Assembly: GCA_036257895.1 (NCBI GenBank)
Contig: DATAES010000151.1
Location: 6,373-70,372 of the forward strand
Length of the DNA stretch: 64,000 bases
Reading direction: 5' to 3'
DNA from: Acidimicrobiales bacterium
Lineage (GTDB): Bacteria; Actinomycetota; Acidimicrobiia; Acidimicrobiales; JACDCH01
Shown here: one piece after another, positions 12,692-37,322 of the stretch
How positions within the stretch are numbered: the stretch's first letter is position 1
How the letters are laid out: every line of letters starts with the position of its first letter
Notes under the pieces: model-generated
Seen by the model: the letters and a program-made list of their open reading frames with translations, nothing else
The model's database searches: none
What the model was told of the DNA's origin: nothing
Made by a program: the position numbers and the translations under genes

Positions 12692-12722
12692 CTGGGGAGG
12701 CGGTGGCTACCATCGCCTCGCC

Positions 12723-15408: not shown

Positions 15409-15531
15409 CGGAGCGTGAAGGCGCCGCACCCCGGGGGGCGAGGTGCGGGCCTCCACCTGAGCGGCACCGCCGTCCGCCGCTTCGGAGCACGATACGGACC
15501 CCACATTTCGCGCGGATGAAGCCGGCGTGAA

Positions 15532-20552: not shown

Positions 20553-20661
20553 CCTCCACGATGGCACGACGACTGGCGCCGACTGCGTCACCGTCCACAA
20601 GATGAGCTAACGACCGGCGAGTGAAGACGCCGGACAGGTGCCGAGCGAGGGGACAGGACAC

Positions 20662-21567
20662 GTGGCAGGAATGTGTGAGGGCCGGATCTGCATCGTGACG
20701 GGCGCAGGTCGGGGAATCGGTAGGGAGCACGCACGGATGCTCGCAGCGCACGGCGCGAGGGTCGTGGTCAACGACCTCGGGGGAGAGATGGACGGCTCCG
20801 GCCGCTCGACCGGGCCGGCGCAGGACGTGGTCGACGAGATCGTCGAGGCCGGCGGCGAGGCGGTCGCCAACACCGACGACATCTCGGACTGGGAGGGCGC
20901 GCAGCGTCTCATCAACGCGGCGGTCGAGGCGTTCGACGGGCTCGACGTCCTCATCAACAACGCCGGCATCCTGCGCGACCGCATGCTCGTGAACATGACC
21001 GAGGAGGAGTGGGACGCGGTCATCAAGGTGCACTTGAAGGGGACGTTCGCACCCACGCGTTGGGCGGCGTCGTACTGGCGCGATCGCATGAAGGCGGGAG
21101 CGATCAACGACGCGCGGGTCATCAACACGTCTTCGGTCTCGGGCATCTACGGCAACCCCGGACAGACGAACTACGGCGCGGCCAAGATGGGCATCGGCGC
21201 GTTCACGATCATCAGCTCACTCGAGCTCGGTCGCTACGGCGTCACGGTCAATGCCATCGCACCCGCCGCGCTCACGCGCATGACCGAGAACCTCGGCATG
21301 GGTCAGGCCTCCGAGGAGGACAAGGAGATGATGTCGCCGCACTGGATCGCACCGGTCGCCACATGGCTGGCGTCGACCCAGTCCGCCGGCGTCACGGGAC
21401 GCGTGTTCGAGGCCTCCGGTCGTGTGTTCGGCATCGCAGAGAGCTGGCACCGCGGGCCCACAGCAGATCCGGTCGACGATCCGACGAAGCTCGATGCGAT
21501 TGCGCGTGGTCTGCTGGCCAAGGCCCGTCCCAACGCGGACATGGCCGGTCAGGACCGCAAAGGTTGA
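20662..21567 (+). CDS. SDR family oxidoreductase
   Basis: IVTGAGRGIGREHA, NNAGILRD, YGAAKMGIGAF. GTG 20662 has GAGGGGA 8 nt upstream; ATG 20671 is an alternative start. Confidence 0.9.
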   Translation: MAGMCEGRICIVTGAGRGIGREHARMLAAHGARVVVNDLGGEMDGSGRSTGPAQDVVDEIVEAGGEAVANTDDISDWEGAQRLINAAVEAFDGLDVLINNAGILRDRMLVNMTEEEWDAVIKVHLKGTFAPTRWAASYWRDRMKAGAINDARVINTSSVSGIYGNPGQTNYGAAKMGIGAFTIISSLELGRYGVTVNAIAPAALTRMTENLGMGQASEEDKEMMSPHWIAPVATWLASTQSAGVTGRVFEASGRVFGIAESWHRGPTADPVDDPTKLDAIARGLLAKARPNADMAGQDRKG

Positions 21568-22481
21568 TCCCCGCTCCGACCGGCACGATCACGCTCGCCG
21601 ACGGTCGCCGCCTCGCGTACGACGATGTCGGTGATCCGGCGGGCGCGCCGGTCGTGTACCTCCACGGATGTCCCGACTGCCGGCTCACGCGTCATCCCGA
21701 CGACGGCGTCGCGGCGCGCTGTGGTGTGCGGTTGATCGCGGTCGACCGTCCCGGCTATGGCGCGAGCGATGCCGATGACAATGGCGACGAGAACGCGCTC
21801 GCGGCGGACGTGGTCGCGCTCGTCGACGCGCTGGACGTCGATCGCTTTGCGGTGCTCGGTTGGTCGGCGGGTGGTCCGTGCGCGCTCGCGCTGGCGGCCG
21901 GGCATCCCACGCGCATCGCGGTCGCGGGCGTGGCCGCGGGACAAGTGCCGATCGAAGCGGATGCCGATCCCGAGGTACGCAACGCGCTCGATCCCGTGAT
22001 CGCGACCCGCAGTGACGTCCTCGCGACGATGAACCCGGACGCGTTCGCGGCGGAGGTCGCGCCGCTCGTGGCTTCGCGGGGCTTGACGATGGAGCTCGCT
22101 CGAGAGTTCGTCGTCGAAGGCAAGTCTCCCGAGTACTTGCGCGACCTCGACGCGGTCGAAGGTCTGCTCCATCAGCTCGCGCTCGGCATGAGTGCAGCGG
22201 TCGAGCACGGTCTCGCGGGCACAGAGCGTGACCTGTGCCGCATGGTGTCCTCGTGGCCGTTCGACCTCGCGGGGATCACGACGCCTGTGGTGCTCTGGTA
22301 CGGCTCGAACGACAGGGTGTTCGGTCCAGGGGCGGGACAGTGGCTGGCGCAGCGGATACCGGGCGCGCAGCTCGAAGTCGTCGAGGCATCACACCTGCTG
22401 CCTCTCGTACGGTGGGAGTCCATCCTCACCGTGCTCATCTCACATCTCGACCGGAGGGAAGAACATGCCACTCAACCATGA
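21564..22481 (+). CDS. Alpha/beta hydrolase
   Basis: Distal part of ORF 21009..22481. Nucleophile elbow GWSAGG. The TTG start overlaps the SDR stop (TTGA). Confidence 0.75.
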   Translation: MIPAPTGTITLADGRRLAYDDVGDPAGAPVVYLHGCPDCRLTRHPDDGVAARCGVRLIAVDRPGYGASDADDNGDENALAADVVALVDALDVDRFAVLGWSAGGPCALALAAGHPTRIAVAGVAAGQVPIEADADPEVRNALDPVIATRSDVLATMNPDAFAAEVAPLVASRGLTMELAREFVVEGKSPEYLRDLDAVEGLLHQLALGMSAAVEHGLAGTERDLCRMVSSWPFDLAGITTPVVLWYGSNDRVFGPGAGQWLAQRIPGAQLEVVEASHLLPLVRWESILTVLISHLDRREEHATQP

Positions 22482-23313
22482 CGCGGTCGGCGCTCGCGGC
22501 GAGCCCGGGGAAAGGAGCTGGAACTCGAAGGACGCCATCCTCTACGCCCTCGGCGTCGGCTGCGGCGTCGACGACCTGCCGTTCACGACAGAGAACACCC
22601 AAGGTGTCGAACAGCAGGTGCTGCCGACCATGGGCGTCGTGCTGCCGGTCGGTGGTCGAGGCGCGTGGGACGAGCTCGGCGACGTCAACTGGACGATGCT
22701 CGTGCATGGTGAGCAGGCCATCGAGCTGCACACGCCGATACCGGTCGAAGGGACGTGCCGGTCCGTTACGACCGTGACGGGCATCTACGACAAGGGATCG
22801 GGAGCGGTCGTCGTGACCGAGACGGAATCGGTCGACGCGAACACGGGCGAACCGCTGTTCACGACCCGCTCCGCCGCGTTCATCCGGGGCGAAGGTGGTT
22901 GGGGAGGCGACCGGGGGCCGAGCGCCGGCGACCGCCCCCAAGCGCCCGAGCGCGAGCCCGATCATGTCGTGAAGTACGAGACCGGTCGCGATCAAGCGCT
23001 CATCTACCGGCTCTCCGGGGACCGCAATCCGTTGCACTCGGATCCGGCGTTCGCCCACGCAGCAGGGTTCGACACGCCGATCCTGCACGGGCTGTGCACC
23101 TATGGCTTCACCGGTCGGGCGCTGCTCCACACGCTGTGCGGATCCGATCCCTCGAAGTTCAAGTCGATGGAGGGCCGGTTCAGCTCGCCCGTTTTCCCCG
23201 GCGACGAGTTGACGATCTCGATGTGGCTGACGGGCGACGGGGAAGCGATCTTCCAGACGCGCCGGCCCGGCGACGTCGTCGTGCTCGACAACGGGTTGTG
23301 CCGCTTCGGCTGA
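22465..23313 (+). CDS. MaoC-family (R)-specific enoyl-CoA hydratase, double hot-dog
   Basis: ATG 22465 is preceded by GGAGGG. Hydratase-2 motif YRLSGDRNPLHSDP. Confidence 0.9.
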   Translation: MPLNHDAVGARGEPGERSWNSKDAILYALGVGCGVDDLPFTTENTQGVEQQVLPTMGVVLPVGGRGAWDELGDVNWTMLVHGEQAIELHTPIPVEGTCRSVTTVTGIYDKGSGAVVVTETESVDANTGEPLFTTRSAAFIRGEGGWGGDRGPSAGDRPQAPEREPDHVVKYETGRDQALIYRLSGDRNPLHSDPAFAHAAGFDTPILHGLCTYGFTGRALLHTLCGSDPSKFKSMEGRFSSPVFPGDELTISMWLTGDGEAIFQTRRPGDVVVLDNGLCRFG

Positions 23314-23432
23314 ACAGCTCGCGCGTGGCCCGCCGCTTCGCTGCCGCGCGGCGAGGGAAGCGCCAGCGACGAGCCGCAGTCTGCGGAGGCAGGAGCGAAG
23401 CGACGCCCGGAGCAGACAGACAGGAACGCGCT

Positions 23433-24092
23433 TCAGAACAGGCGCAGCGTGTCGGACTCGATGCCGCGCAACTCGTCGTAGTCGACTTCGACCCACGTGA
23501 TGCCGCGGCTCTCCGCGAGCACGCGCGCCTGCGGCTTCACGACCTGTGCGACGAAGATGCCGCGCACAGGACGCAGCATCGGATCGAGATTCATCCGCTC
23601 GATGTAGCGGGCGAGCTGCTCGACGCCGTCGATCTCGCCTCGTCGCTTCACTTCGATCGCGACCGCGCCACCGTCGCCATCTCGGCAGAGCAGGTCGACA
23701 GGACCGATGTCCGTCGGATGCTCGCGACGGACGAGCCGCAGGCCGGTGGCGATCGCGGTGCAGTTCGCGGCGAGCAGTTCCTGCAGGTGCGCTTCGACGC
23801 CGTCCTTCTGCAGACCGGGGTCGGTGCCGAGTTCGTAGCTGACGTCCGACAGGATCTCCTCGATCGTGATGGTGAGGGTCTCACCCTTGGTGTTGGTGAC
23901 CGTCCATCCGCTTGGTTCCTCGACCAGCCGGTTGGGCGCGACCATCCAGTTGAGGGGCTTGTACGCACCGCCGTCAGAGTGAATCGACAGGCAGCCATCG
24001 GCCTTGATCATCAACAGCCTTGTCGCCATGGGAAGGTGAGCCGTGAGTCGCCCGTCGTAGTCGACGGCGCAACGCGCGATCACGAGGCGCAC
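23433..24092 (-). CDS. nucS: Endonuclease NucS (EndoMS), non-canonical mismatch repair
   Basis: 219 aa with full-length NucS similarity ([16 protein letters not shown]..., ..[28 protein letters not shown]). Confidence 0.95.
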
Positions 24093-24143
24093 CGGCCGAG
24101 ACTACGGGACTTCCTGCCTGCCCACGGATGTGCGGGATGGTTG

Positions 24144-24190
24144 ACGCCCGGGCGTTTCACTACCCAGCCGGTAGTCAGACGCCCGGGCGT
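24144..24190. repeat. Twin-palindrome element (family D copy 1): ACGCCCGGGCGT-N23-ACGCCCGGGCGT
   Basis: Two identical perfect 12-bp palindromes at 24144 and 24179, 35 bp apart. The same arrangement recurs at 52036/52071. Confidence 0.85.
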
Positions 24191-24232
24191 CCTGCAACAC
24201 GTGCGCTCGCGATAGGGGCAGACTCTGGCCCA

Positions 24233-26737
24233 ATGGTGGACGCCACCAGGGCCGGCACCTTCGACCAGGCTGTGCATTCCACGCCGACCTTGCGCGTACG
24301 CGACGTCCACAAGCGCTTCGGACGGCTCGAAGTGCTCCGTGGCATCGATCTCCAGGTGTCTCGCGGCGAGATCCTCTCCCTGGTCGGGGAGAACGGCACG
24401 GGCAAGTCGACGATCGTGCATAGCATCGCCGGAACGTGGCTGCCGGATGGGGGCACGGTCGAGCTCGACGGTCGGCCGCTCTGCGCCTCCGACCCGCGGG
24501 TAGCCGTGGTGTGGCAAGACCTTGCGCTGTGCGACAACTTGAGCGTCGTCGCCAACTTGTTCCTCGGCGACGAGCGCCGCGACAGCTACCTCCTCGATGA
24601 GCGACAGATGATCGCGGAGGCCGTGGACCTCTTCGACGCGTTGCATCTCACGCCCGGCGATCTGGAACGGCCCATCGGCGAACTGTCTGGCGGGCAGCGC
24701 CAGCTCGTCGCCATCGCGCGCGCGGTGCGACGACGGCCGGAGGTTCTCGCGCTCGACGAGCCGACAGCGTCGCTCGGCGTGAACGAGACCGCGGTGGTCG
24801 AGCAGCTGTTGGCCGAGCTTCGTTCCCAGGGGACCGCCATCCTGCTGGTGTCGCACAGGCTCGATCAGGTCTTCGAGCTGGCCGACCACATCGCCGTGTT
24901 GCGCGACGGGCGCATCCTCGCCGTGGCCTCGCCGCGCGACGTCCATCCCGACGACGTGGTGGCGATGATGTCGGGCACCGAGGCGGTGTCGTCGGCCCGC
25001 CGCCAGCTCCGCCGGTTGCACAGCCTCGTCGAGCAACTCGCCGACGTCGAGCCTGCGGCCAGCCTGCCGCTCATCGTGTCGGCGATGGCCGAGGCCGTCG
25101 ATGTCGAGCAGCTGTGCGTGCACCTGCTGGACGAGTCGGGTGGCGAACCCCGGCTTCGGTGCTCGGCCACCGTGGGCCTCGATCTCGACGGTGTCGACGG
25201 GCTCGACCGACTCCGGCTCGGGGCGTTGGGCGGACCGCCCGGCGCTGCCGCGGCGGCTGCGTCCACGGTGATCGTCGAGGACACCCGCACCGACCCGTTG
25301 TGGTCGCACTGGCGGGGGCGCACGTTGGCGCAGGTCCGCAGCTGCTGGTCGATTCCCATCGTCGGCGCGGCCGGGGTGCTCGGCACCATCTCCGCGTTCG
25401 ACGACAATCCGGGTAGCCCGCAGCCCGACCAGCTCGAACTCGTAACGCTCTACGCGAGCCATGCTGCGGCGGCGATCGAGCGAGAGCGGCTCCTCGCTGA
25501 CGCGACGCGCCGCAATCGAATGCTCGAGACGCTCCGCGGCGTCCTCGACAAGCTGGCAGGGCCCCACCCCGCAGAGGGCGCGCTCGGCGTCGCGCTCGTT
25601 GCACTGTGTCGCGGCCTGGGAGCCGATGCCATCGCGCTGCATCCTGCGGGTGGCGAGAGCCTCGAGCTCGTGACCGCTGAGCTCGTGGACGGATCGGCGG
25701 CTGCGGCCGCCGATCGTCAGCGTGCCGCGGCGGCTTGTGTGCTGCGCAGCTACGACGACGTCGATCGTGCCCGGCCGGTCGGACCCGACGTCGTCGCCGT
25801 CCCGATCGCAACCCCAGATGGTCGGGCCGTTCTGACCGCATGGTGGGGCGACGCCGATCGGTTGTCGAGCGACGCACTCGATCTGTTCGACGACGCAGCG
25901 CGATCGTTGTCACTCGCTCTCGAACGCGAGGCGCTCGAGCGGGCGAACGCGGAAGCGGCTGCGCTGCGGAGGTCGCATCGACTGCAACGCGATTTCCTCC
26001 ACCGCCTCAACCACGAGCTGCGGACTCCTTTGACGGCGATCCAGGGATACGCCTCCACCCTGCGTCAGACCGATGTGAGCTGGGACAGCTCCGCGCAGGA
26101 GCGGTTCCTCGACTCGATCGCGGCGGAGTCGGCGCGGATGGGCCGGCTGGTCGGCGACCTCCTCGACTTCAGCGCGATCGACTCCGGCACGCTCAGGCTC
26201 GTGCGTGACTGGTGCAATCTCGAGCTCGTCCTCGAAGCGGCCCGCCGCTGCGTGGGAGACGGCACGTCTCCGGTCATCGAGCTCGCCCACGCTGCCGAGC
26301 TACCCGCGGTGTGGGCCGACCACGATCGGCTCGAGCAGGTCTTCGTCAACTTGCTCGACAACGCCGTGCGTCACGCGTCCGGTGTCACCCGGATCAACGT
26401 TCGCTCCTCGGTCGACCTCGACGCGGGCTCCGTCACCGTGCGCGTCGCCGACGACGGACGTGGCATCCCGGCTTCGCTGGTCGATCGTGTCTTCCTCCCT
26501 CGTGAGCGGGGCACGACCGACGATGCCGGCGCAGGTCTCGGTCTCGCCATCGCCCGCGGCATCGTGGTCGCACACGGCGGCACCATCTGCATCGACCGTC
26601 GCCGCCCCGGGACCACCGTCGTGGTCACGGTGCCGATCGATCCCTCCCCGCTCGACTCCAGCGGCGACGTCGTCGATCTCATCAACGCTGTCGCCGATCC
26701 CGTCTCGGTCGACCACGCCACCGACATGGTCGAATGA
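24233..26737 (+). CDS. Hybrid sensor histidine kinase: ABC ATPase (NBD) - GAF - GAF - HisKA - HATPase_c; no TM segment
   Basis: NBD motifs GENGTGKST, VVWQD, LSGGQRQ, VLALDEPT and VSHR. GAF-like CWSIPIVGAAGVLGTISAF..AAAIERERLL. H-box NHELRTPLTAI. N/G1/G2 boxes NLLDNAVRHA, DDGRGIP and GAGLGLAIARG. Start set at ATG 24233, where GC3 rises; the ORF opens at 24128. Confidence 0.85.
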   Translation: MVDATRAGTFDQAVHSTPTLRVRDVHKRFGRLEVLRGIDLQVSRGEILSLVGENGTGKSTIVHSIAGTWLPDGGTVELDGRPLCASDPRVAVVWQDLALCDNLSVVANLFLGDERRDSYLLDERQMIAEAVDLFDALHLTPGDLERPIGELSGGQRQLVAIARAVRRRPEVLALDEPTASLGVNETAVVEQLLAELRSQGTAILLVSHRLDQVFELADHIAVLRDGRILAVASPRDVHPDDVVAMMSGTEAVSSARRQLRRLHSLVEQLADVEPAASLPLIVSAMAEAVDVEQLCVHLLDESGGEPRLRCSATVGLDLDGVDGLDRLRLGALGGPPGAAAAAASTVIVEDTRTDPLWSHWRGRTLAQVRSCWSIPIVGAAGVLGTISAFDDNPGSPQPDQLELVTLYASHAAAAIERERLLADATRRNRMLETLRGVLDKLAGPHPAEGALGVALVALCRGLGADAIALHPAGGESLELVTAELVDGSAAAAADRQRAAAACVLRSYDDVDRARPVGPDVVAVPIATPDGRAVLTAWWGDADRLSSDALDLFDDAARSLSLALEREALERANAEAAALRRSHRLQRDFLHRLNHELRTPLTAIQGYASTLRQTDVSWDSSAQERFLDSIAAESARMGRLVGDLLDFSAIDSGTLRLVRDWCNLELVLEAARRCVGDGTSPVIELAHAAELPAVWADHDRLEQVFVNLLDNAVRHASGVTRINVRSSVDLDAGSVTVRVADDGRGIPASLVDRVFLPRERGTTDDAGAGLGLAIARGIVVAHGGTICIDRRRPGTTVVVTVPIDPSPLDSSGDVVDLINAVADPVSVDHATDMVE

Positions 26738-27462
26738 GCGAAGACGCGACACTCGTCCTGGTCGTCGAGAACGACGCCAACATCGTCGACCTCGTCCAGG
26801 CGAACCTGCTGGCACGAGGGTTCGCGGTGATCGTGTCGCGCACAGGCGCCGACTCGGTCGAGCTCGTCGACACTCGCAGTCCGGATGTCGTGCTGCTCGA
26901 CCTCATGCTTCCGGCTGTCGACGGCTTCGACCTGTGCCGAGAGATCCGGGAGCGTTCCTCCGTGGGGATCATCGTCGTGTCAGCTCGTCGGGGCGAGCAG
27001 GACAAGGTCCGCGCACTCAATCTCGGCGCCGACGACTACCTGACCAAGCCGTTCGGGATTGACGAACTGCTCGCCCGCATCAACGCGCTCCTGCGGCGCA
27101 GCCGTCCGCCGGCGCCTCCCGAGGTGCATGCGCCAGTCTCGTTCGGCTCGGTGACGGTCGACCTCGAGGCACAGCTCGTCACCAAGGACGGCGTGGCCGT
27201 CCACTTGACGCCGACGGAGTTCGCGCTCCTGCGCGAGCTCGTGCTCGCCCCCGGCAAGCTGTTGTCGCACGCGACGCTGTTGCGCAAGGTGTGGGGCCCC
27301 GGTTACGAGACCGCGACGGAGTACACCCGCGTGTACGTGCGCAGGCTGCGGGCCAAGCTCGAGGATCCCGACGGTCCGGCTCTCATCGCCACCGAGCCGC
27401 GCGCCGGCTACCGGATGGCGCTCCCCGAGGAGCGACCCAACGAGTCGATGCCGTCACGCTGA
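26734..27462 (+). CDS. OmpR/PhoB-family response regulator, KdpE-like
   Basis: Receiver domain (VLLDLMLPAVDGF, LTKPF) plus winged helix (LTPTEFALLRELV..LLRKVWGPGYETATEYTRVYVRRLRAKLEDDP..GYRM). ATGA overlap with the kinase stop. Confidence 0.95.
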   Translation: MSEDATLVLVVENDANIVDLVQANLLARGFAVIVSRTGADSVELVDTRSPDVVLLDLMLPAVDGFDLCREIRERSSVGIIVVSARRGEQDKVRALNLGADDYLTKPFGIDELLARINALLRRSRPPAPPEVHAPVSFGSVTVDLEAQLVTKDGVAVHLTPTEFALLRELVLAPGKLLSHATLLRKVWGPGYETATEYTRVYVRRLRAKLEDPDGPALIATEPRAGYRMALPEERPNESMPSR

Positions 27463-27480
27463 GCGTGCGCGCCAGGCGGC

Positions 27481-27545
27481 GTTCGCGGTTCGTTCACGTT
27501 GAGGCAAGGATTTCTACATCTCGTTCACATCCGCGTTCCTAGCGT
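27481..27545 (+). promoter_or_regulatory. Candidate response-regulator binding sites and promoter upstream of the ABC importer genes
   Basis: GTTC(A/G/C)(C/T) hexamers at 27481, 27492, 27523 and 27535, paired at 11-12 bp. TCGTTCAC is repeated exactly at 27490 and 27521. Locally AT-richer. TAGCGT (TANNNT) at 27540. Confidence 0.3.
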
Positions 27546-27607: not shown

Positions 27608-28822
27608 ATGCGCGTCAGGCATCTCAGGTCGACCGTTGCCCTCGTCACGTTGGGGCTCCTGCTGCTTGCAGCGTGCAGCGACTCCAAGAGCAACACGAGC
27701 ACGAGCTCGGGCGGGAACGGGTCGAACGCGTCGAGTGGCACCATCGCGGCGTCGGACTTCGCGGCCGACTTCGCGGCGATGGCCAAGGTGAAGGATCTCG
27801 CAGCCAAGGGCAAGGGCCTCATCGGGGTCCTGTTGCCTGACACGACGACCTCGGCGCGCTACGAGTCGTTCGACCGCCCATATCTCGAGAAGGCGTTCCA
27901 GACCGCGGGGCTGTCCAAGGACCAGTACAAGATCGACAACGCTCAGGGCAGCGCGTCCACCATGCAGACGCAAGCCGAGGCCGACATCACGAACGGGGCC
28001 ACCGTGCTGTTGGTCGATGCGCTCGATTCGGGCAGCGGCGCGGCGATCGAGTCAGCCGCCGCGGCCAAGGGCGTCAGGGTCATCGACTACGACCGCCTCG
28101 TGAAGGGGGGCGACCCCGACCGGGTGTACGTCAGCTTCGACAACGTGGAGGTCGGCAAGCTCATCGGCCAGGGCTTCATCGACTGCGCCACCGACTGGAA
28201 GGTGGCGAAGCCGAACGTTCTCGTGATGGACGGCGATCCCACCGACAACAACGCCGGCCTGTTCGCGCAGGGCTACAACGGCGTGCTCCAGCCGAAGTTC
28301 GATTCCGGCGACTACGTGAAGGTCGGTGAGCCGGCAGGCACGTGGACCCCGACGGTGGCAGCCACCACGTTCGAGCAGCAGTACACGGCCAATCCCAACA
28401 TCAACTCGGCCGTGACGCCGAACGACGACAACGCGAACGCGGTGATCGCGAGCCTGCAGCGCCAGCAGATCCCGGCAAAGACGTTCCCGACGACCGGGCA
28501 GGACGCGTCGACATCCGGGCTCCAGAACATCCTGAAGGGCTACCAGTGCGGCACCGTCTACAAGCCGATCTACCTCGAGGCCCAGGCCGCGGCCGCAGTC
28601 GCCATCTACATGCGGGCCGGTGAGGATCCGCCGTCGGCGCTGGTCAACGGCACGACGAAGGACACGCAGGCGAACACCGACGTGCCGTCGGTGCTGCTGA
28701 AGCCGACGTGGGTCACGGTCGACAACATGTCGGCCACCGTCGTCAAGGACGGTGCCGTGACGGTCGCGGCGCTCTGTGTCACTGCCGTGGCCACGCAGTG
28801 CTCTGCGGCGGGGATCAAGTAG
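27608..28822 (+). CDS. Sugar ABC transporter substrate-binding lipoprotein (XylF/RbsB-like, CUT2 type)
   Basis: ATG 27608 lies after GGGGGA. Lipobox LLLLAAC. Periplasmic-binding core IGVLLPDTTTSARYESFDRPYLEKAF...VRVIDYDRL. Confidence 0.9.
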   Translation: MRVRHLRSTVALVTLGLLLLAACSDSKSNTSTSSGGNGSNASSGTIAASDFAADFAAMAKVKDLAAKGKGLIGVLLPDTTTSARYESFDRPYLEKAFQTAGLSKDQYKIDNAQGSASTMQTQAEADITNGATVLLVDALDSGSGAAIESAAAAKGVRVIDYDRLVKGGDPDRVYVSFDNVEVGKLIGQGFIDCATDWKVAKPNVLVMDGDPTDNNAGLFAQGYNGVLQPKFDSGDYVKVGEPAGTWTPTVAATTFEQQYTANPNINSAVTPNDDNANAVIASLQRQQIPAKTFPTTGQDASTSGLQNILKGYQCGTVYKPIYLEAQAAAAVAIYMRAGEDPPSALVNGTTKDTQANTDVPSVLLKPTWVTVDNMSATVVKDGAVTVAALCVTAVATQCSAAGIK

Positions 28823-28932: not shown

Positions 28933-29748
28933 GTGAACCCGGACGCCACTGTGCAAAGCGAACCCGAACGAACGTCGTCGAGCGCCAGCCCGTTGCTCCG
29001 TCTCGAGGGCATCGGGAAGAGCTTCGGCAACGTGCACGCGCTCGTCGACATCGACCTCGACATCCTCTCGGGCGAGGTCATGGCGTTGACCGGCGACAAC
29101 GGCGCCGGCAAGTCCGTGCTCATCAAGTGCATCGCCGGCATTCACAGCCCTGACACCGGCAGAATCCTCTGGGAGGGGACGCCGGCTCACCTCCGGTCCC
29201 CCCGGGACTCGTCGGCGCTGGGCATCGAGACCGTCCACCAGGACCTCGCGCTCTGCGACAACCTCGACATCGTCCAGAACATGTTCCTCGGTCGCGAGAA
29301 GGTGCGGCACCACGCCCTGGACGAGGAGGACATGGAGCGCGCCGCGGGCCAGACCCTCGGCGGGCTCGCGGTCACGACAGTGCGTTCGGTGCGTCAGCTT
29401 GTCGCATCGCTCTCGGGCGGCCAGCGTCAATCGGTCGCCATCGCGAAAGCGGTCCTCTGGAACTCGAAGCTGGTGATCATGGACGAGCCCACCGCCGCGC
29501 TCGGCGTCGCGCAGACGCGGATGGTCCTCGATCTCGTGCGCCGGCTTGCCGACCGAGGGCTCGCAGTTCTGATCGTGTCGCACAACATGAACGACGTGTT
29601 CCAGGTGGCCGACCGCATCACGGTGCTCCGTCTCGGGCGCCTCGTCGCGGTGCGGCCTCGGGCGGAGATGGATCCCCAGATCGCGGTCGACCTCATGACC
29701 ACCGGCGTGTCGACCCGAACGGTGAAGATGGCCGATGACCGCGGTTGA
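28933..29748 (+). CDS. Sugar ABC transporter ATP-binding protein, single NBD (half the size of canonical CUT2 ATPases)
   Basis: 271 aa. GDNGAGKSV, VHQDLALCDNL, LSGGQRQSVAIAKAV, IMDEPTAALGV and VSHNM. GTG start after GGAGG. Confidence 0.9.
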   Translation: MNPDATVQSEPERTSSSASPLLRLEGIGKSFGNVHALVDIDLDILSGEVMALTGDNGAGKSVLIKCIAGIHSPDTGRILWEGTPAHLRSPRDSSALGIETVHQDLALCDNLDIVQNMFLGREKVRHHALDEEDMERAAGQTLGGLAVTTVRSVRQLVASLSGGQRQSVAIAKAVLWNSKLVIMDEPTAALGVAQTRMVLDLVRRLADRGLAVLIVSHNMNDVFQVADRITVLRLGRLVAVRPRAEMDPQIAVDLMTTGVSTRTVKMADDRG

Positions 29749-31027
29749 CGAGCCCGAACCGGCCGCGGTCGACCACGAACTGGTCGAGGCGGCCGTCGCG
29801 GAGACCGAAGTCACCGAGCCGCCCGAGGCCGTCGCCGAGACCCTCCGCGACTACACGCGGGTGGTGTACGTCCGCATCAAGTCGGGCGACAGCGGCGTGC
29901 TCCCGGTGGTCGGCGGGCTGCTCCTCATTTCGATCCTGTTCCAGTGGCTGAACCCGAACTTCCTGACAGCCGGGAACATCGTCAACCTGCTGATCCAGGG
30001 CGCGCCGTACATGCTGCTGGCAATGGGTGAGATCTTCGCGCTGTTGCTCGGCGAGATCGATCTGTCGATCGGCTTCGTCAGCGGCATCGGCGGTGTCGTC
30101 ACCGCGGAGTTGGTGAAAGAGTCGACCGGCTGGCCCTGGTGGGCGGCGATCCTGGCGGGTCTAGTCGTCTGCGCGCTGATTGGCCTGCTGCAGGGAACGA
30201 TCATCACTCGCTTCGGCCTCCCGTCGTTCGTCGTGACACTGGCCGGTCTGCTCGGGTGGCAAGGCGTGATGTTGCTGATACTCGGTCAAGGCGGCTCGCA
30301 GCCGATCAACGACGACGTCATCAACAACATCACGAGCGGCAACCTCACACCCGCGGGCAGTTGGCTAGCGATGATCGCGATCGTCGCCGCGTTCGGCGCG
30401 CGCACGTGGTTCCGCGAGGCGCGCCGGCGCGCGTCAGGTCTCGTGGCTCCGCCCGCGGTCGTGACGGTGATCAAGATCGCGGCTTCGGCGGTCGCGGGCA
30501 TCATCCTCGTGATCATCTGCAACACCGATCGCGGGCGGCTCGTGCCGATCCAGGGCGTGCCGTGGGTCGTGTTGCTCGTGCTGGCGGTGCTGACCGCGTG
30601 GACGTTCCTGCTCGGTCGCACGCGCTTCGGTCGTTACGTGTATGCCATCGGCGGCAACGCAGAAGCAGCACGCCGCGCCGGTATCAACCTCTCTCGCATC
30701 CGCACGATGTGCTTCATGCTGTCGTCCTTCACAGCCGGCATCGCGGGCATCGTCACTGCGTCACGGTTGCGCTCGGTGTCCACGTCGCTCGAGGGCGGAA
30801 CGCTCGTGCTCTACGCCGTCGCCGCGGCCGTGATCGGGGGCACGAGCCTGTTCGGCGGGCGGGGCAAGGCGATCCACGCCGTGCTCGGCGGCCTCGTGAT
30901 CGCGGCGATCGACAACGGCATGGGCCTCCAGGGCTACAGCGCGGCGGCGAAGTACGTGGTGACCGCGCTCGTTTTGCTGGCTGCGGTCACGATCGACGCC
31001 GTGGCCCGGCGCAACGCCGCGCGCTGA
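29735..31027 (+). CDS. Sugar ABC transporter permease (XylH/RbsC-like)
   Basis: 430 aa, multi-TM. NIVNLLIQGAPYMLLAMGEIFALLLGEIDLSIG, and C-terminal GGTSLFGGRG. Overlaps the ATPase gene by 14 nt. Confidence 0.9.
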   Translation: MTAVDEPEPAAVDHELVEAAVAETEVTEPPEAVAETLRDYTRVVYVRIKSGDSGVLPVVGGLLLISILFQWLNPNFLTAGNIVNLLIQGAPYMLLAMGEIFALLLGEIDLSIGFVSGIGGVVTAELVKESTGWPWWAAILAGLVVCALIGLLQGTIITRFGLPSFVVTLAGLLGWQGVMLLILGQGGSQPINDDVINNITSGNLTPAGSWLAMIAIVAAFGARTWFREARRRASGLVAPPAVVTVIKIAASAVAGIILVIICNTDRGRLVPIQGVPWVVLLVLAVLTAWTFLLGRTRFGRYVYAIGGNAEAARRAGINLSRIRTMCFMLSSFTAGIAGIVTASRLRSVSTSLEGGTLVLYAVAAAVIGGTSLFGGRGKAIHAVLGGLVIAAIDNGMGLQGYSAAAKYVVTALVLLAAVTIDAVARRNAAR

Positions 31028-31029
31028 GG

Positions 31030-31719
31030 TCAGAAGCGGAACTCGACGCCGCCGATCCGGCGGGTTCCGTCGCCAGATCCGCGTAGGTCGACGGCGGCGA
31101 GTCCACCCGTTCCGTCGACGATGCGAAGGCTCGCGTTGTCGAGCTCGATCACGCCCTCGACGACGGGCAGGGCGAGGATCTCACTCCACCGGGCTGCGAC
31201 CTTGTCGGCGTCCGGTACGCGCAACTCGACGCCGGAGATGCCGTCGACGGTTTCGGTGCGAACGGCGCGCTGCCAGTCGGGACCCGCCGGCATCCATGGC
31301 CCGTTGAAATCGTCGCCTCCCGGCTGGAAGTCGATCTCGAGGAACGACCCACCCGTGTCGCTCGGGTGAAGTTGCATGATCTTGTAGCCGTGCTCGTCGG
31401 CGTCGAGGACCTTGCGCATGCCGAGTTCCTCGGCGCGGGCGCGCACTTGCTCGTGCTCGTCGGTGTGGCAGATCACCATGTAGCCGCCGTCGCCACCGAG
31501 CCGGTCGAGCTGCCGGCCTGCGGCGGTGCCCTCCTTCGTCGGTGACACGACCTCGACGAACTGGGTCCCCACCGGCAGCACGGCGTTGCGCAGCCCGAAT
31601 GTCGCGACAGCAGGATCGTTGAACGCGACTTGCAACCCGAGCTCGCGCCCCAGGTCAGCGACGACTGCGTCGAGGTCGCGTGCAACGAGCGCGACCTGTC
31701 GCAGGCGGATCCACGTCAT
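31030..31719 (-). CDS. VOC/glyoxalase-like domain protein
   Basis: 229 aa. [35 protein letters not shown] overlap with the upstream hydratase. Confidence 0.7.
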
Positions 31720-32483
31720 CGAAACACCGGCTTGCGCTTCTCGACAAAGGCGCGGAACGCCTCCGCGGTGTCCTCGCTCGCCGCGATCTTCAGGTGACGC
31801 TCTGCCTCGTAGTCGACGAAGTCGGCGAACGACATCCGTTCGGCGGCCACGTAGTTCCTCTTCAACCCCAGTAGCGCGGTCGGCGACTTCTCGAGGAGCG
31901 TGGTGAGCACCTCCTCGGTGTCGGCTCTGAACGACTCGTCAGGGAAGACGCGCGCCACCAAGCCGATCTGGAGCGCTTCCGCAGCGTCGATACGCCGCGG
32001 CAAGAAGGACAGGTCGCGCGCTCGCGCCGCGCCGACGATGCGGGGGAGCGACCATGGGATCGCCATGTCGCCGGCCACGGCAACGTCGAGGAACGCGGTG
32101 TTGAGTCGAGCACCGGCGGACATCACCCGCAGGTCGCACGCCAGGGCCCACCCCAAGCCGGCGCCCGCACACGCGCCGTTGATCGCCGCGACGGTGACGG
32201 CGCGGATCTCGTGCAGCAGCGTCGTCACCACGAACTCGCGTGACGTGAGCCGCTCGTCGGCCTCGCCACTCGTGAAGTGCTTGAGATCGGCTCCGGGACA
32301 GAACGCCTTGCCCTCGCCGGTGAGCACCAGCACGCGGATCGACGCGTTGCCCGCCGCCTGCTCGAGCGCGTCGCGTGCTTCGCGCACCATCCTGTTCGTC
32401 ATCCCGTTCATGTTCTCCGGCCGGTTGAGCGTGAGCCGCGCGAGCCCGTCGGACACCTCGTAACGCAGGGTCTCGAAATCCAT
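31716..32483 (-). CDS. Enoyl-CoA hydratase/isomerase (crotonase)
   Basis: ATG 32483 ([10 protein letters not shown]). [14 protein letters not shown] and [21 protein letters not shown]. Confidence 0.9.
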
Positions 32484-32531
32484 CACGCTCACTGTCGTGC
32501 ATCGACCGCGCCACTGTCCACGTCCCCCGGT

Positions 32532-32582
32532 CGAACTCCGGGTCGCCGTGGCCCCTATAGGGGCCACGGCGCACCAACATTG
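32532..32582 (-). repeat. REP-like palindromic element, family A copy 2
   Basis: The reverse complement matches the family A consensus with 2 differences. Confidence 0.9.
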
Positions 32583-32609
32583 CCAGACGATGGTCTACGG
32601 GGGTGGGTA

Positions 32610-32966
32610 CTACTCGGCGCTTCTCAGCACGCAGAGCTCGTTGCCTTCCGGATCCGCGAGCACGATCCACGTCTCCTCGCCGGTCTGCCCGATGTCGACG
32701 CGCGTCGCGCCCATCGACTCGAGTCGCGCCACCTCGGCATCACGATCGTCCGGACGGAGGTCGAGGTGGATCCTGTTCTTCGCGGTCTTGTCGTCGCGCA
32801 CTTCGAGAAAGAGAAGGGTCGCTCCGTTCGCGCCACCCTTCGGCTGGATCCAGATCTCATCCGGTTCTTCGCCGCCGACCTCGTAGTCGAGCGCCTCCGC
32901 CCACCATCGTGCGAGTGCATGCGGATCATGCGCATCGATCGTCACAGTTTCGAGGCGCAAGGTCAC
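32610..32966 (-). CDS. VOC family (glyoxalase/bleomycin-resistance fold) protein
   Basis: 118 aa. VTIDAHDPHALARWWAEAL..NRIHLDL..VLADPEGNELCV. Confidence 0.85.
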   Translation of the reverse strand: MTLRLETVTIDAHDPHALARWWAEALDYEVGGEEPDEIWIQPKGGANGATLLFLEVRDDKTAKNRIHLDLRPDDRDAEVARLESMGATRVDIGQTGEETWIVLADPEGNELCVLRSAE

Positions 32967-32997
32967 GGAGCGAACCTCCGATTCGCTGAACCAGCCA

Positions 32998-33897
32998 TCA
33001 TCTCGGAATCGGGAAGATCACGTCCTCGTCCGCCATCCCGGCGGCTGCATCCGCGCGGTCCTCGGCAGCCATCGGGGTGAACCGCTCGGCAGCTTCGAGC
33101 ACGCGGGGGAGCAAGCCGAGATCGCCCGGTGTGCAGAACGCGTGCACGCCGGGTGTCGACAGCGCGAACGACACGCCCCGTTCGATGCCGTCATCGTCCT
33201 TCTGTGGCTCGTACCACGACGTTGCCCACCGGTCTGCAGTGGCGGGGTCGCCCGCGATCACGTCCGCCAGGGGCCGCTGATCGGGCCATGGCCGGCGAGC
33301 GACGGCCTTGATGACCATCACGCCCAGGTCGCGCTCGGCGCACACTGCGAGCAGCTCCTCGGCGGCTTCTCGGTAGACCGGGTCGGCCCACAGGCGCGGA
33401 TACACCGGGAACATCACCGTGTCGAGGTCGTAGCGCCGCAGCGCTTCGAGAAACGTGCGCGGCACCGTGAGGTCGTGGCCCGTGATGCCGGCGAAGCGGC
33501 ACTTGCCTTCGTCGCGCAGCTGGAGGATGCGCTCGATGCCAGGGGCGCGGTTCTCGAGCTCGTCGAGTGTGGTGACGGCGTGCGCTTGGTACAGGTCGAG
33601 GACGTCGCAGCCGAGCAGTCGCCGGCTGTCGTCGAACTGGTCGACGACACCATCCGGATTCGATCGCAACGTCTTGGCCGCGACGAACAGCTCGTCGCGC
33701 ACCGCGGGAACGGCAGGGCCGACGGCCTTCTGCGCGTCGCCGTACTGCGGCGCGATGTCGAGGTGGTTCACACCGTGTTCCATCGCGAGTGTGAGGCCCC
33801 GAGCACCTTGCTCTTCCGAGGACATCCAGAACGCGGCCCCCCCGAGGATGGCGACGCTGCTCTCGTGCCCGGTTCGACCCAGTCGCCGACGCTCCAT
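32998..33897 (-). CDS. Aldo/keto reductase
   Basis: 299 aa. RRLGRTGHESSVAILGG, HLDIAPQYGDA, LDLYQAH. Confidence 0.85.
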   Translation of the reverse strand: MERRRLGRTGHESSVAILGGAAFWMSSEEQGARGLTLAMEHGVNHLDIAPQYGDAQKAVGPAVPAVRDELFVAAKTLRSNPDGVVDQFDDSRRLLGCDVLDLYQAHAVTTLDELENRAPGIERILQLRDEGKCRFAGITGHDLTVPRTFLEALRRYDLDTVMFPVYPRLWADPVYREAAEELLAVCAERDLGVMVIKAVARRPWPDQRPLADVIAGDPATADRWATSWYEPQKDDDGIERGVSFALSTPGVHAFCTPGDLGLLPRVLEAAERFTPMAAEDRADAAAGMADEDVIFPIPR

Positions 33898-33924
33898 TGC
33901 TGCCCCCTCCGGCGCACCCTGTCG

Positions 33925-33973
33925 TTCTTGCGTGCAACGTGGACCCTATAGGGCCGTTCTGCACGCCGAAACG
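33925..33973 (+). repeat. REP-like element, subfamily B copy 2
   Basis: ttcttgcgtgcaacgtggaccctatagggccgttctgcacgccgaaacg. Confidence 0.75.
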
Positions 33974-33982
33974 GCTGGGTGG

Positions 33983-35578
33983 CTAGCGCTTGTGGCGGCG
34001 TTGGCCTTCGAGGCGTTCGCGGATGACCGCACGGCGCTCCTGCAACTCTCGGTACGTGAGCTTCTCGACGGAGTCGTCGAGGCCGAAGCTGGCCTTCACG
34101 CCCGTCATGTCGAGTTGCCACGCGTCGGGATCGAGCCCGAGCTCCGCCGCGATGCGCTCGCCGTGGGCGTTGGCGAAGTGCATCGAGATCTCCGCGATCT
34201 CGCCGAAGATGTCGAGATCCGGCGCGAGCGTTGCGATCGCGCCGTCGAGGAACATCATGTTCTTCACGAACAGCATCAGCTCCTTCGGCAGGCGCGCGCC
34301 GATGCCGAGCAGGGCCTTGATGGTGCGTTGGATCTCCCCGACCAGCTCGTCACCCGTCATCGTCGTCGGGTCGACGGGGGGTCGATCGAGACCGAGGTCG
34401 ATGATGATCGCGTCGAGGTCCGTGTCGGACGGCAGAGCGCCGAGATCGCGCAACGCTCCGAGTTGGCCGCGCACGTCGTTCATCGAGCCAGCGATCAAGA
34501 GTCGCAGGAGCGCCAGACGTTTCGGTTCGGACAGCCGTCCGGTGATGCCGAAGTCCATGAGGGCGGTGCGACCGTCGGCCATCACGAACAGGTTCCCGCC
34601 GTGCAGGTCGCCATGGAAGATGCCGTGGATGAGCGCGCCCTCCATGCCGCCCACCATGCCCGTGCGCACGACCTCGTGCGTGTCGACGCCGGCGTCCTTC
34701 ATGCCGGCGACGTCCTCGAACGCGAAGCCGCGGAGACGTTCCATCACCAGCACGCGACGGGTGACGAGCGAAGGATGCGGCCGCGGGATGACGTAGCCGC
34801 GCTGGCCCAGGAGCGCGAACGCGTGCGCGACCTCGAGCATGTTGTCCGCCTCGAGGCGGAAGTCGAGCTCCTCGGCGATGGTCTCGGCGAACAGCTCGAC
34901 GAGCGCGGGAGGATTGGCGAGCGCCGCGACCGGTATGCGCCCGACGAGGTGCGGTGCCACCCACGACATGACGCGAAGGTCTCGGTGGACCAGCTCGCTC
35001 ACTTGCGGTCGCTGCACCTTGACGACGACCTCCTCGCCGGACACGAGCGTGGCGGCATGCACCTGCGCGATCGATGCCGCGGCCAACGGTGTTCGTTCGA
35101 TCGTGCGGAAGACCGCATTCAGAGGCTGCAGCAAGTCCTCCTCGATGACCCGGCGCACCACGTCGAATGGCTCGGGCGGCACCTGGTCGCGGCACTTCCG
35201 GAATTCCGCGACGAGCGGTTCCGGGAAGATGCCTTCACCCGACGAGATGATCTGCCCGAGCTTGATGTACGTCGGCCCTAACCGCTCGGCAGCAATGCGC
35301 AACCTCCGTGAGATGCCGGCGACCGATGCTTCGGTGCCGCGCTCGCGCACCGCCCACACCGCGACGGGCAGGCCGAGATCGCGCAGCGTCACCAGCATCC
35401 GCCCGCCCGGCGGCACTCGTCGATAGCGAGTCAGCTCCGGCACCGAGGCCCGAACGCTCGCGCGGAGACGATCGACATCTCGGCGCCACGTCAGGGCATC
35501 CAACTCGACGACCCATGGGCCGTGATCGGTGAAGGAGCCGTATTCGACGTCGGGTGATACCTGCGGTGCTGCTGTCAC
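33983..35578 (-). CDS. ABC1/UbiB-family atypical protein kinase
   Basis: GPTYIKLGQIISS, AAASIAQVHAA, VVKVQRP, HGDLHGGNLF and MDFG. Start set at GTG 35578, supported by GC3; TTG 35503 is an alternative. Confidence 0.8.
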   Translation of the reverse strand: MTAAPQVSPDVEYGSFTDHGPWVVELDALTWRRDVDRLRASVRASVPELTRYRRVPPGGRMLVTLRDLGLPVAVWAVRERGTEASVAGISRRLRIAAERLGPTYIKLGQIISSGEGIFPEPLVAEFRKCRDQVPPEPFDVVRRVIEEDLLQPLNAVFRTIERTPLAAASIAQVHAATLVSGEEVVVKVQRPQVSELVHRDLRVMSWVAPHLVGRIPVAALANPPALVELFAETIAEELDFRLEADNMLEVAHAFALLGQRGYVIPRPHPSLVTRRVLVMERLRGFAFEDVAGMKDAGVDTHEVVRTGMVGGMEGALIHGIFHGDLHGGNLFVMADGRTALMDFGITGRLSEPKRLALLRLLIAGSMNDVRGQLGALRDLGALPSDTDLDAIIIDLGLDRPPVDPTTMTGDELVGEIQRTIKALLGIGARLPKELMLFVKNMMFLDGAIATLAPDLDIFGEIAEISMHFANAHGERIAAELGLDPDAWQLDMTGVKASFGLDDSVEKLTYRELQERRAVIRERLEGQRRHKR

Positions 35579-35639
35579 GCCCTGGCCACTCTGCCCGGTG
35601 CAGGTACCATCCGGCCACTCGATCAAAGGGGACAAGCCA

Positions 35640-37295
35640 GTGATCGACCGGTGGATCGTCGATTCGCAACCGAGTACGAGGTATCCGATCTTCACTCGGG
35701 GCAACGTCGGCGAAGTCTTTCCCGACCCGGTAGCGCCGCTCAGCGGCGACACCATCAAGCGCTACGCGGAGCACGGATGGCGGGATGCGTTCGTGCGTTT
35801 CGGTGCGTTCGATGCCGACGAGTTCGATCCCGACAACACCGAGATCATCGGAATCTTCGGCGGCTACTGCTATCTCAACGTGTCGATCAGCCGGATCCTC
35901 GGCGTACGGACGCCTGGTCTCACGGCCGAGTCGATCGACAACCAACTCTGGGGCGAGATGCCGGGCGTGCCGCCATATGCGCCGCAGCCGACGGATGAGA
36001 GCCCGAGCCACACCGAGCGGATCCAGCAGACGCTCGGCTGGGCGCTCACCACCGAGTCGTTGCCGGAGCTCGCCGAGGACGAACGTCTCCTCGACCGGCT
36101 CCGTGACGAACGGCCCGATCTCACGCAGCTGAGCGATGCCGCGCTCGTTGACCGCATGCGCGACCTGACGGACGAACACTTCCGCCGGCTCTTCGGCCAC
36201 CATCTGTTCATCTCGTACTGCGCCACGGTTCCGGTGGGCCTCATCCAACAGGTGTGCGCGGCTGTCGGGCGTCCCGATGACATGCTTCGCCTCATGGCCG
36301 GCGTCGGCGACGTCGAGTCCGCGGCGCCGAGCTATGCGATGTGGGACCTGTCGCGGCTGCCCGCCGACAGCGACGAGTTCAAGGTCCGGTTCGGTGAGTT
36401 CCTGCACGAGTACGGCGCCCGCGGACCGAACGAGTGGGAGATGCGATCACCGACGTGGGAGATCGAGCCCGAGCTCGCGCTCGTTGCCATCGAACAGATG
36501 CGCCGGACGCCGGACGATGGTGCGCCGCTCGAGCACCAGGCAGCGCGCGCGCAGGAAAGGGAACGAGTCGGTGCCGACATCGCCGCGATGCTCGAAGGTG
36601 ACGCCGAGACCCACGGGCAGTTCCTTGCGGCGTTGCGGGCTGCACCGCTCTTCCTTGCCGGCCGCGAGCGCTCGAAGACGAACGCGATCCGCCTCACGCA
36701 CGAGCTGCGTCTCGCCATGCACGAGCTCGGCCGGCGCTACGTCGAGCGCGGCGTGTTCGACCAGCCGAACAACTTCGGCATGGTGCGCTGGGATGAGCTC
36801 GACCAACTGGCCGCCGACCCGGGCTCGCTGACCGAAACGATCCGCGAGCGCGAAGCCATCTACGCGGAGCTGGTCACGCTCGAGCCGACATTCGTGTTCG
36901 AAGGTGAGCCGCCGTCGCCGTCGTCGTGGCCGCGTCGTGACGCGCGACCCGCCGCGGTTGCAGGCGACGGGGACGTGCTCCAGGGCATCCCGGGCTGTCC
37001 CGGCAAGGCGCGCGGCCGAGCGCGCGTCGTGCTCGACTCGCATGATCCGACGACGCTCGAGCCGGGCGACGTGCTGGTCGCGCCGATCACGGATCCGTCA
37101 TGGACGCCGCTGTTCGTGCCGGCGGCCGCCGTGGTCGTCGACGTCGGTGCGCCCCTGAGTCACGCCATCATCGTCAGCCGCGAGCTCGGCATCCCTTGTG
37201 TCGTGTCGGTGACGGATGCGACCCGGAAGATCCCGAACGGTGCTTCGGTGGAAGTGGACGGCGACACCGGAACGGTGACAGTGCTCGAAGTGTGA
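35640..37295 (+). CDS. PEP-utilising-enzyme mobile (swivel phosphohistidine) domain protein; no ATP-grasp domain
   Basis: GTG 35640 lies 7 nt after AGGGGA. C-terminal GIPGCPGKARGRARVV..GDVLVAPITDPSWTPLF..GAPLSHAIIVSRELGIPCV. Confidence 0.75.
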   Translation: MIDRWIVDSQPSTRYPIFTRGNVGEVFPDPVAPLSGDTIKRYAEHGWRDAFVRFGAFDADEFDPDNTEIIGIFGGYCYLNVSISRILGVRTPGLTAESIDNQLWGEMPGVPPYAPQPTDESPSHTERIQQTLGWALTTESLPELAEDERLLDRLRDERPDLTQLSDAALVDRMRDLTDEHFRRLFGHHLFISYCATVPVGLIQQVCAAVGRPDDMLRLMAGVGDVESAAPSYAMWDLSRLPADSDEFKVRFGEFLHEYGARGPNEWEMRSPTWEIEPELALVAIEQMRRTPDDGAPLEHQAARAQERERVGADIAAMLEGDAETHGQFLAALRAAPLFLAGRERSKTNAIRLTHELRLAMHELGRRYVERGVFDQPNNFGMVRWDELDQLAADPGSLTETIREREAIYAELVTLEPTFVFEGEPPSPSSWPRRDARPAAVAGDGDVLQGIPGCPGKARGRARVVLDSHDPTTLEPGDVLVAPITDPSWTPLFVPAAAVVVDVGAPLSHAIIVSRELGIPCVVSVTDATRKIPNGASVEVDGDTGTVTVLEV

Positions 37296-37322
37296 CCTCG
37301 CTGGTCGCGCGAGGCTGAGGTC

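Follow-up and report, generated by a model that had tools for sequence, protein, structure and literature searches.

In ATP-binding cassette (ABC) sugar importers of the CUT2 family, the ATPase is typically a protein of about 500 residues in which two nucleotide-binding domains (NBDs) are fused and one site is degenerate. A first, sequence-only reading of the DNA studied here took this size and the two fused NBDs as canonical, and both do hold for RbsA and XylG of Escherichia coli and for 71 other two-NBD proteins. Still, the layout is typical and not universal in CUT2, because half-size members have already been described. FrcA of the Sinorhizobium fructose transporter is one such half-size ATPase. 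A passage of PMC10433430 names FrcA, and a passage of PMC7264815 cites Wagner et al. (2018) for a single-domain CUT2 ATPase in the pentose transporter of Sulfolobus acidocaldarius. We analysed a 64,000-nucleotide (nt) stretch of the Acidimicrobiales contig DATAES010000151.1 (hereafter the window, about 68% G+C), where five co-directional genes encode a sensor histidine kinase, a response regulator, a sugar-binding protein, a half-size CUT2 ATPase and a permease, the kinase itself carrying an NBD of transporter type. The half-size ATPase adds nothing new in itself; the interest lies in its kinase neighbour.

Coupling between transport and regulation is usually explained by loose contacts that are hard to pin down, as in the Bce, Pst/PhoU/PhoR and MalK/MalT systems. 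PhoR, together with PstB and PhoU, is a transporter-coupled sensor kinase. Binding-protein-dependent sensing by kinases is represented by XylFII-LytS/YesN of Firmicutes, ChvE-VirA and LuxP-LuxQ, and ABC ATPases with fused regulatory modules by MalK, whose regulatory domain binds MalT, and by CmpC/NrtC. In BceS-BceAB the kinase senses flux through the transporter (PMC9169098, PMC5786555). The window kinase resembles BceS and PhoR in lacking an extracytoplasmic sensor, in its genetic link to an ABC transporter and in its proposed role as a reader of transporter activity. Their kinases, however, are membrane proteins in non-covalent contact with the transporter, whereas here a soluble kinase carries the transporter-type NBD. 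BceAB is moreover a resistance exporter and the window system a binding-protein-dependent CUT2 importer, and the two transmembrane helices of the Bce intramembrane-sensing kinases are absent from the soluble window kinase. With XylFII-LytS/YesN, ChvE-VirA and LuxP-LuxQ the locus shares a periplasmic-type sugar-binding protein that would feed a two-component system inducing a CUT2 sugar transporter. Those are membrane-spanning kinases in direct contact with the binding protein. The window kinase has no membrane segment, so that a signal would have to reach it by way of the permease. In MalK and CmpC/NrtC, as here, the C-terminus of an NBD is joined to a domain that links transport to regulation; the difference is that the fused part is a complete GAF-HisKA-HATPase_c kinase with its own response regulator.

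The kinase gene (24233–26737, + strand, by the 834-residue NCBI start call; longest open reading frame, ORF, from 24128) encodes a cytoplasmic sensor histidine kinase with an N-terminal ABC NBD. Pfam domains are ABC_tran (70–214), GAF (313–451), HisKA (620–687, E 4e-20, with NHELRTPL) and HATPase_c (731–838, E 1e-22), and the overall order is NBD, helical linker, GAF, a second alpha/beta domain, HisKA and HATPase_c. The protein thus combines a HisKA domain with H-box and a HATPase_c domain, and adjoins the gene of a cognate OmpR-type regulator, as is characteristic of HisKA-type sensor kinases; the kinase stop overlaps the regulator start codon (ATGA). The NBD portion (residues 52–285 of the 869-residue ORF; 24281–24982, +) is 41% identical to the ATPase and retains intact motifs (GENGTGKS, WQD, LSGGQRQ, LDEPT and SH). 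Among NCBIfam models its ten best matches are all CUT2 ATPases, aligned over the N-terminal half. No membrane segment was seen by hydropathy or in the AlphaFold2 (AF2) model, the top hydropathy stretch sitting within a folded domain. The model (mean predicted local distance difference test score 75) comprises the NBD (18–247), a helical linker (254–289), GAF, a 45-residue helix, the second alpha/beta domain, a 65-residue helix leading into DHp, and the catalytic domain. The linker is of low confidence in this monomer model, yet it contains many invariant residues in the alignment. A cluster look-up found no cultured host of the kinase fusion.

The ATPase gene (28933–29748, +) has a GTG start with the Shine-Dalgarno-like GGGGAGGAA directly upstream, and its 271-residue product is identical to an NCBI-annotated protein (P0251) from an Acidimicrobiales metagenome-assembled genome (MAG). 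The ORF, Pfam, NCBIfam and motif evidence agree on a half-size CUT2 ABC ATPase. Pfam returned one ABC_tran domain (residues 39–188, E 9e-29) and otherwise nothing notable, bearing out the single NBD proposed earlier. The ten best NCBIfam models are all of CUT2 type (YtfR, RbsA, two for XylG, MglA, GguA, AraG, a B6 transporter ATPase, AlsA and LsrA), with E-values from 2e-60 to 4e-43 against 1e-34 for the next family; the matches of both NBDs cover profile positions of about 1–245, i.e. the N-terminal half of CUT2 ATPases. All motifs are canonical (GDNGAGKS, the Q-loop VHQD, LSGGQRQ, MDEPT and SH). Compared with RbsA, XylG, MglA and AraG of E. coli, whose N-halves provide the best family match and whose partner proteins are of the same type, the 271-residue protein has one fully canonical NBD in place of the roughly 500-residue arrangement of two fused NBDs with one degenerate site. 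The best 120 clusters among 8,000 candidates at E 1e-20 all fall between 251 and 337 residues and are annotated as sugar or xylose transport ATPases; in Nonomuraea and Labrys, single-NBD ATPases occur in the same gene context. Relative to the Sulfolobus and FrcA proteins there is no difference of kind: a single NBD of some 250–280 residues, a BPD_transp_2 permease, a binding protein of Peripla_BP_4 type and presumed homodimers are shared, the window ATPase being another member, from Acidimicrobiales. It is near-certain that the protein is a regular half-size CUT2 ATPase and that its half size is ordinary. As its NBD combines Walker A, Q-loop and H-loop of N-half type with a canonical LSGGQ, two copies can form two consensus sites, and judged by these motifs a homodimer can build both on the permease encoded by the adjacent gene.

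BLASTP aligns the ATPase and the kinase with 41% identity over 239 residues (E 1e-51), far beyond chance, and the eight peptide strings from which their kinship had been proposed are all present, four in the ATPase at 29233–29652 and four in the kinase at 24509–24925 (ORF 24128–26737). That both NBDs belong to one subfamily is confirmed, as NCBIfam models and a phylogeny against N- and C-halves assign them to the CUT2 lineage. The alignment comprised 179 NBDs: 11 from kinases, 8 from cognate ATPases, 73 N-halves and as many C-halves (those of E. coli RbsA and XylG among them), 12 single NBDs, and LivF and LivG as outgroups. The tree was calculated by neighbour joining with 200 bootstraps. Kinase NBDs form a clade in 97% and cognate ATPases in 92% of replicates. 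The cognate ATPases group with four other half-size NBDs (Nonomuraea, Labrys, Streptomyces and L002) in 73%, and the kinase NBDs are sister to this whole half-size group in about 50%; kinase NBDs and cognate ATPases are never exclusive sisters (0%, 0/200). On average, the ATPase is 45–47% identical to the other half-size ATPases of Nonomuraea, Labrys and Streptomyces, 41% to kinase NBDs, 36% to N-halves and 27% to C-halves. The string QDLALCDNL is not specific to the locus and marks the whole half-size clade (QDLALCNNL in Labrys, QDLALFDNL in Nonomuraea). The term "close paralogue" used in the sequence-only reading is therefore overstated: at 41% identity the ATPase is nearer to other half-size ATPases than to its neighbour, and together with the 0/200 bootstraps this rules out the kinase NBD as a recent duplicate of the adjacent gene. 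It is near-certain that the kinase NBD is an old offshoot of the half-size lineage and not a recent copy of the neighbouring gene. As the two NBDs are never exclusive sisters, they must have separated no later than the module arose.

In E. coli RbsA and XylG the two halves show complementary degeneracy, with LSIGD or LGLGQ as the N-half signature and a C-half in which Walker A reads GAGRT and both the Q-loop Gln and the H-loop His are missing. The degenerate-site substitutions that had been suggested as a check were searched for in 74 kinase NBDs and 40 ATPases, and no such asymmetry was found in either. Walker A, Q-loop, LSGGQ, the D-E of Walker B and the H-loop are each at least 90% conserved, with the consensus G[ED]NGAGK[ST], Q, LSGGQRQ, DEPT and the H-loop His kept in both families. 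A pair rebuilding the N-half plus C-half of a CUT2 ATPase is ruled out, both NBDs matching N-halves and being about 27% identical to C-halves. As both families are canonical, there is no sequence sign of an obligate heterodimer, and each can, going by its motifs, form a symmetric homodimer with two consensus sites. The stoichiometry proposed earlier stands as far as it counts one free and one kinase-tethered NBD; nothing found favours a heterodimer over homodimers.

The remaining module genes were assigned as follows. An OmpR/PhoB-family response regulator (26734–27462, +; Response_reg and Trans_reg_C, by Pfam and NCBIfam) is followed by a sugar-binding lipoprotein (27608–28822, +; Peripla_BP_4, Pfam E 2.6e-38), which is XylF/ChvE-like below equivalog cut-offs. 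Its likely ATG start at 27608 follows AGGGGGAAG, the longest ORF begins at 27572, and the signal peptide ends in LLLLAAC. The CUT2 permease (29735–31027, +; 430 residues, BPD_transp_2, Pfam E 1.3e-35, GguB-like) starts 14 nt before the end of the ATPase gene. Its first hydrophobic segment is preceded by an acidic extension of some 50 residues at the N-terminus (MTAVDEPEPAAVDHELVEAAVAETEVTEPPEAVAE..., window 29735–29900); this extension is absent from E. coli RbsC. The module genes are identical to their counterparts in an Acidimicrobiales MAG (P0001, P0251).

Conservation was assessed in 10 genome loci (L001–L010, retrieved with the whole kinase) and 80 metagenome loci (retrieved with the GAF-kinase part only). 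The genome loci come from Actinomycetota MAGs, Solirubrobacterales, Nocardioidaceae and Streptosporangiaceae. Wherever enough upstream sequence was available, the NBD is fused to the kinase (73/73 loci), and a half-size ATPase gene lies between binding protein and permease in 49 of the 52 loci reaching that position. The usual order is that of the window: kinase, regulator, binding protein, half-size ATPase, permease. A linker-GAF query against 1.84 billion representatives returned about 68 clusters at E ≤1e-30, whose full-length members match from residue 230–270 and therefore have room for an NBD. Conservation of the module across Acidimicrobiales, Solirubrobacterales, Nocardioidaceae and Streptosporangiaceae is near-certain. 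Five kinase relatives appeared to lack the NBD (P0056, P0089, P0091, P0093 and P0098, without ABC_tran in Pfam). P0091 (locus L164), the one checked, has an NBD split over three frames; a few 577–585-residue representatives of the linker-GAF search lie outside this check. L164 is a close relative on a 615-kb contig in which both the kinase NBD (6527–7276) and the permease (11983–13279) are broken up across several reading frames. This points to a frameshift in the assembly or the gene call and accounts for database entries of the kinase seemingly without NBD.

In L001, L088, L091, L102, L114 and L120 the binding protein is 36–40% identical to that of the window, as compared to 45–72% in other loci, and the ATPase of these same loci, where present, is still about 59–61% identical. 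The binding protein has been exchanged within the module, and sugar specificity has probably changed along with it. The window flanks (20600–24100 and 31030–37300), read by eye from ORF translations only, contain lipid/coenzyme A metabolism and unrelated functions (SDR, hydrolase, MaoC-like protein, enoyl-coenzyme A hydratase, aldo-keto reductase, UbiB-like kinase and a phosphoenolpyruvate-utilising enzyme). No sugar-catabolic genes were seen in this by-eye reading of the flanks, so the transported sugar is not readable from the context.

Between regulator and binding protein lies a candidate operator (27480–27541, +) with direct repeats CGTTCAC at 27491 and 27522, each with a degenerate partner about 11 nt away (27480 and 27534). 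The direct repeat GTT[ACT]A[CT] is conserved in the corresponding spacer of relatives: at least one copy occurs in 61 of 65 spacers (17.8 ± 3.4 after shuffling) and at least two in 49 of 65 (3.1 ± 1.7). Repeat spacings of 11–12, 31 and 42 nt are those expected of tandem OmpR/PhoB-type binding. Given conserved direct repeats upstream of the transporter genes, we infer that the regulator would control the transporter operon through them. No autoregulatory operator was seen upstream of the kinase in the window, and a scan for sigma-70 promoters and terminators gave nothing informative in this 68% G+C DNA.

Two independent lineages, with kinases 50–52% identical, have no ATPase gene in the module: L102 (5070–12657) on the one hand, and L002 (9947–15572) with L110 (3–3484) on the other. 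In these variants the permease gene directly follows that of the binding protein, and the start codon of the latter overlaps the stop of the regulator gene (TGATG or ATGA), leaving no operator spacer. The permease of L102 (414 residues) is intact, and an acyl-coenzyme A thioesterase gene comes next; the kinase NBD has canonical motifs, and the operon begins with a GH3 glycosidase gene that has the repeat pair upstream. Locus L092 (4560–7306) is arranged differently: a kinase-regulator pair and a repeat pair (4560) are followed by a CUT2 ATPase with two NBDs and by a permease that is more distant (32% identity), with no binding-protein gene in between. Five loci (L095, L099, L106, L123 and L127) have two consecutive permease genes after a single half-size ATPase, an arrangement implying that the membrane part is a heterodimer and that one ATPase gene, together with the kinase NBD, serves it.

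A second type of fusion was observed in Streptomyces shenzhenensis (L011, 9854–11872 of NZ_PENI01000005.1), where a half-size CUT2-type NBD, 50% identical to the window ATPase, is joined to SpoIIE/PP2C and HATPase_c_2. More than 120 clusters of this architecture, of about 610–620 residues and annotated only as SpoIIE family phosphatase, were found in Kitasatospora, Streptomyces, Streptacidiphilus and Actinacidiphila. The L011 gene is divergent, beside a LacI regulator and a complete CUT2 operon and outside the transporter operon itself. With this fusion besides that to the kinase, half-size-type NBDs have been recruited into signalling proteins at least twice.

How the kinase might use its NBD can be framed as follows. 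As it has no membrane segment, its NBDs would be the route by which it senses external sugar. Like other HisKA kinases, it presumably forms a parallel homodimer, and the rod-like architecture of its AF2 model is typical of parallel kinase dimers. Such a dimer would hold two NBDs side by side with their C-termini away from the membrane, and side-by-side NBDs with C-terminal regulatory domains are the geometry of MalK-type NBD dimers. The two kinase NBDs would dock on the coupling helices of the permease dimer, replacing two ATPase subunits; sugar-loaded binding protein would drive their ATP-dependent closure, and the movement would reach the kinase core via the conserved helical linker and the GAF domains. 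Transport would be left to the majority of permease copies, equipped with ATPase homodimers, and ATPase-less operons would encode versions dedicated to reception. Docking is favoured by these ATPase-less operons, by the rod-like geometry of the kinase, by the many invariant residues between its NBD and GAF domain and by the Q-loop segment QDLALCDNL..N..LG.E, which we take, by homology to MalK, to line the coupling-helix cleft and which is conserved in kinase NBDs as tightly as Walker A (0.85 and 0.88, respectively). To the reading as a whole, i.e. an ordinary half-size ATPase, an old kinase NBD, a conserved module and docking of the kinase NBDs on the permease, we assign a probability of about 0.5. 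Docking of an NBD pair on the permease dimer, taken on its own and by analogy, is the best-supported mechanism, which we put a little short of an even chance. We are more sceptical of a bolder version, in which the kinase would be a genuine importer subunit whose NBD closure is read out as kinase activity, a case of transmembrane signalling by a kinase without membrane segment; L102 and L002/L110 would be pure receptors, and the NBD-PP2C-HATPase_c_2 proteins a second use of the same principle; this we offer tentatively.

A number of observations weigh against docking, are neutral towards it or concern the tree on which the reading builds. The cleft assignment follows from MalK analogy only, as no PDB chain is homologous to the permease and a solved homologue for mapping the contact surface was accordingly not found there. 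The kinase-permease contact is proposed and the physical complex putative. Distance matrices fall into two blocks, kinase NBD, GAF-kinase part and regulator (r 0.87–0.95) and binding protein, ATPase and permease (r 0.77–0.86). Kinase NBD and permease correlate at r 0.53, hardly above the rest of the kinase (0.50; partial correlations 0.29 vs. 0.23). Within-locus residue matching between kinase NBD and ATPase, as expected of gene conversion or shared adaptation to the permease, is absent (mean z 0.02; 6 of 98 columns with z >2). Conserved synteny is equally explained by plain regulation of the transporter operon, the actual ligand sensors could be the GAF domains, and an ATPase-less operon could borrow an ATPase encoded elsewhere, as actinobacterial CUT1 systems share the ATPase MsiK encoded elsewhere. 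L002 itself holds another half-size CUT2 system 6 kb upstream; its kinase NBD (9971–10726) is degenerate (GAGKLT and LSRGQ) and its permease (14368–15572) shifts frame near 14910, so that the locus may be decaying or affected by long-read assembly errors. Finally, kinase NBDs evolve faster than the ATPases (52% vs. 68% within-family identity), and neighbour joining may misplace such a family towards the base of the tree.

Three explanations manage without a pair of kinase NBDs on the permease. In the model of the sequence-only reading, the permease is served by a heterodimer of one free half-size ATPase and one kinase NBD, and each signalling-competent transporter carries one kinase protomer. 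Both NBDs do come from the same half-size CUT2 lineage, they have the Q-loop/cleft string, the LSGGQRQ signature and the unusual D-loop A[AS]LGV in common, and their genes co-occur in 49 of 52 loci. However, both copies are fully canonical instead of complementarily degenerate, and both are N-half-like instead of forming an N-half plus C-half pair. Their genes lie in different transcription units, set apart by the regulator gene and the operator-bearing spacer, operons without any free ATPase gene exist, the two families show no covariation within loci, and their distance matrices correlate at 0.68 as compared to 0.86 for ATPase and permease. A dimeric kinase would moreover present two NBDs, a better fit to a symmetric site. 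We regard this heterodimer as improbable. The same lack of covariation speaks against a kinase NBD that binds, or competes with, free or idle ATPase off the membrane and thereby reports or throttles the unengaged pool, an idea for which the sequestration of MalT by MalK is the analogy. The NBD-NBD interface motifs (Walker A, signature and D-loop) are common to both proteins and gene co-occurrence is 94%, but the ATPase-less locus L102 keeps an intact kinase NBD; we regard this reading as very improbable.

Alternatively, the kinase NBD would never touch the transporter. Inside the kinase dimer it would serve as a soluble switch for ATP-driven dimerisation or as a sensor of energy charge, the ligand of the GAF domains would be an intracellular compound derived from sugar, and the link to the transporter would be purely regulatory. 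The strictly conserved catalytic motifs imply that ATP binding and hydrolysis matter, the NBD co-evolves with the kinase-regulator block and not with the transporter block, and GAF domains are common small-molecule sensors. A similar NBD in the PP2C and HATPase_c_2 proteins of Streptomycetaceae, encoded outside a transporter operon, points the same way, although the L011 copy adjoins a complete CUT2 locus. What this leaves unexplained is that the NBD is always of half-size CUT2 type, that the module stays beside a CUT2 permease across classes, and that ATPase-less operons are translationally coupled to the kinase-regulator pair; the putative permease-contact segment, too, is held as tightly as Walker A. 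On balance we consider a transporter-independent NBD unlikely.

In summary, the module represents a variant of transporter-coupled two-component sensing that is conserved and apparently undescribed. No description of an ABC-NBD fusion to a histidine kinase or to SpoIIE was found in the open-access full-text literature, which is not proof of absence. The occurrence of the NBD fusion across soil Actinomycetota suggests that the kinase may detect sugar uptake by plugging into the transporter. Coupling may here be hard-wired, with a transporter-type ATPase domain built into the kinase in several soil Actinomycetota orders and always beside a matching importer. If docking is true, the locus would provide a clean, testable model of how the conformational cycle of an ABC transporter is converted into a phosphorylation signal, and a portable sugar-sensing module for engineering. 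If it is false, the NBD would represent a new ATP-dependent input domain for two-component systems.

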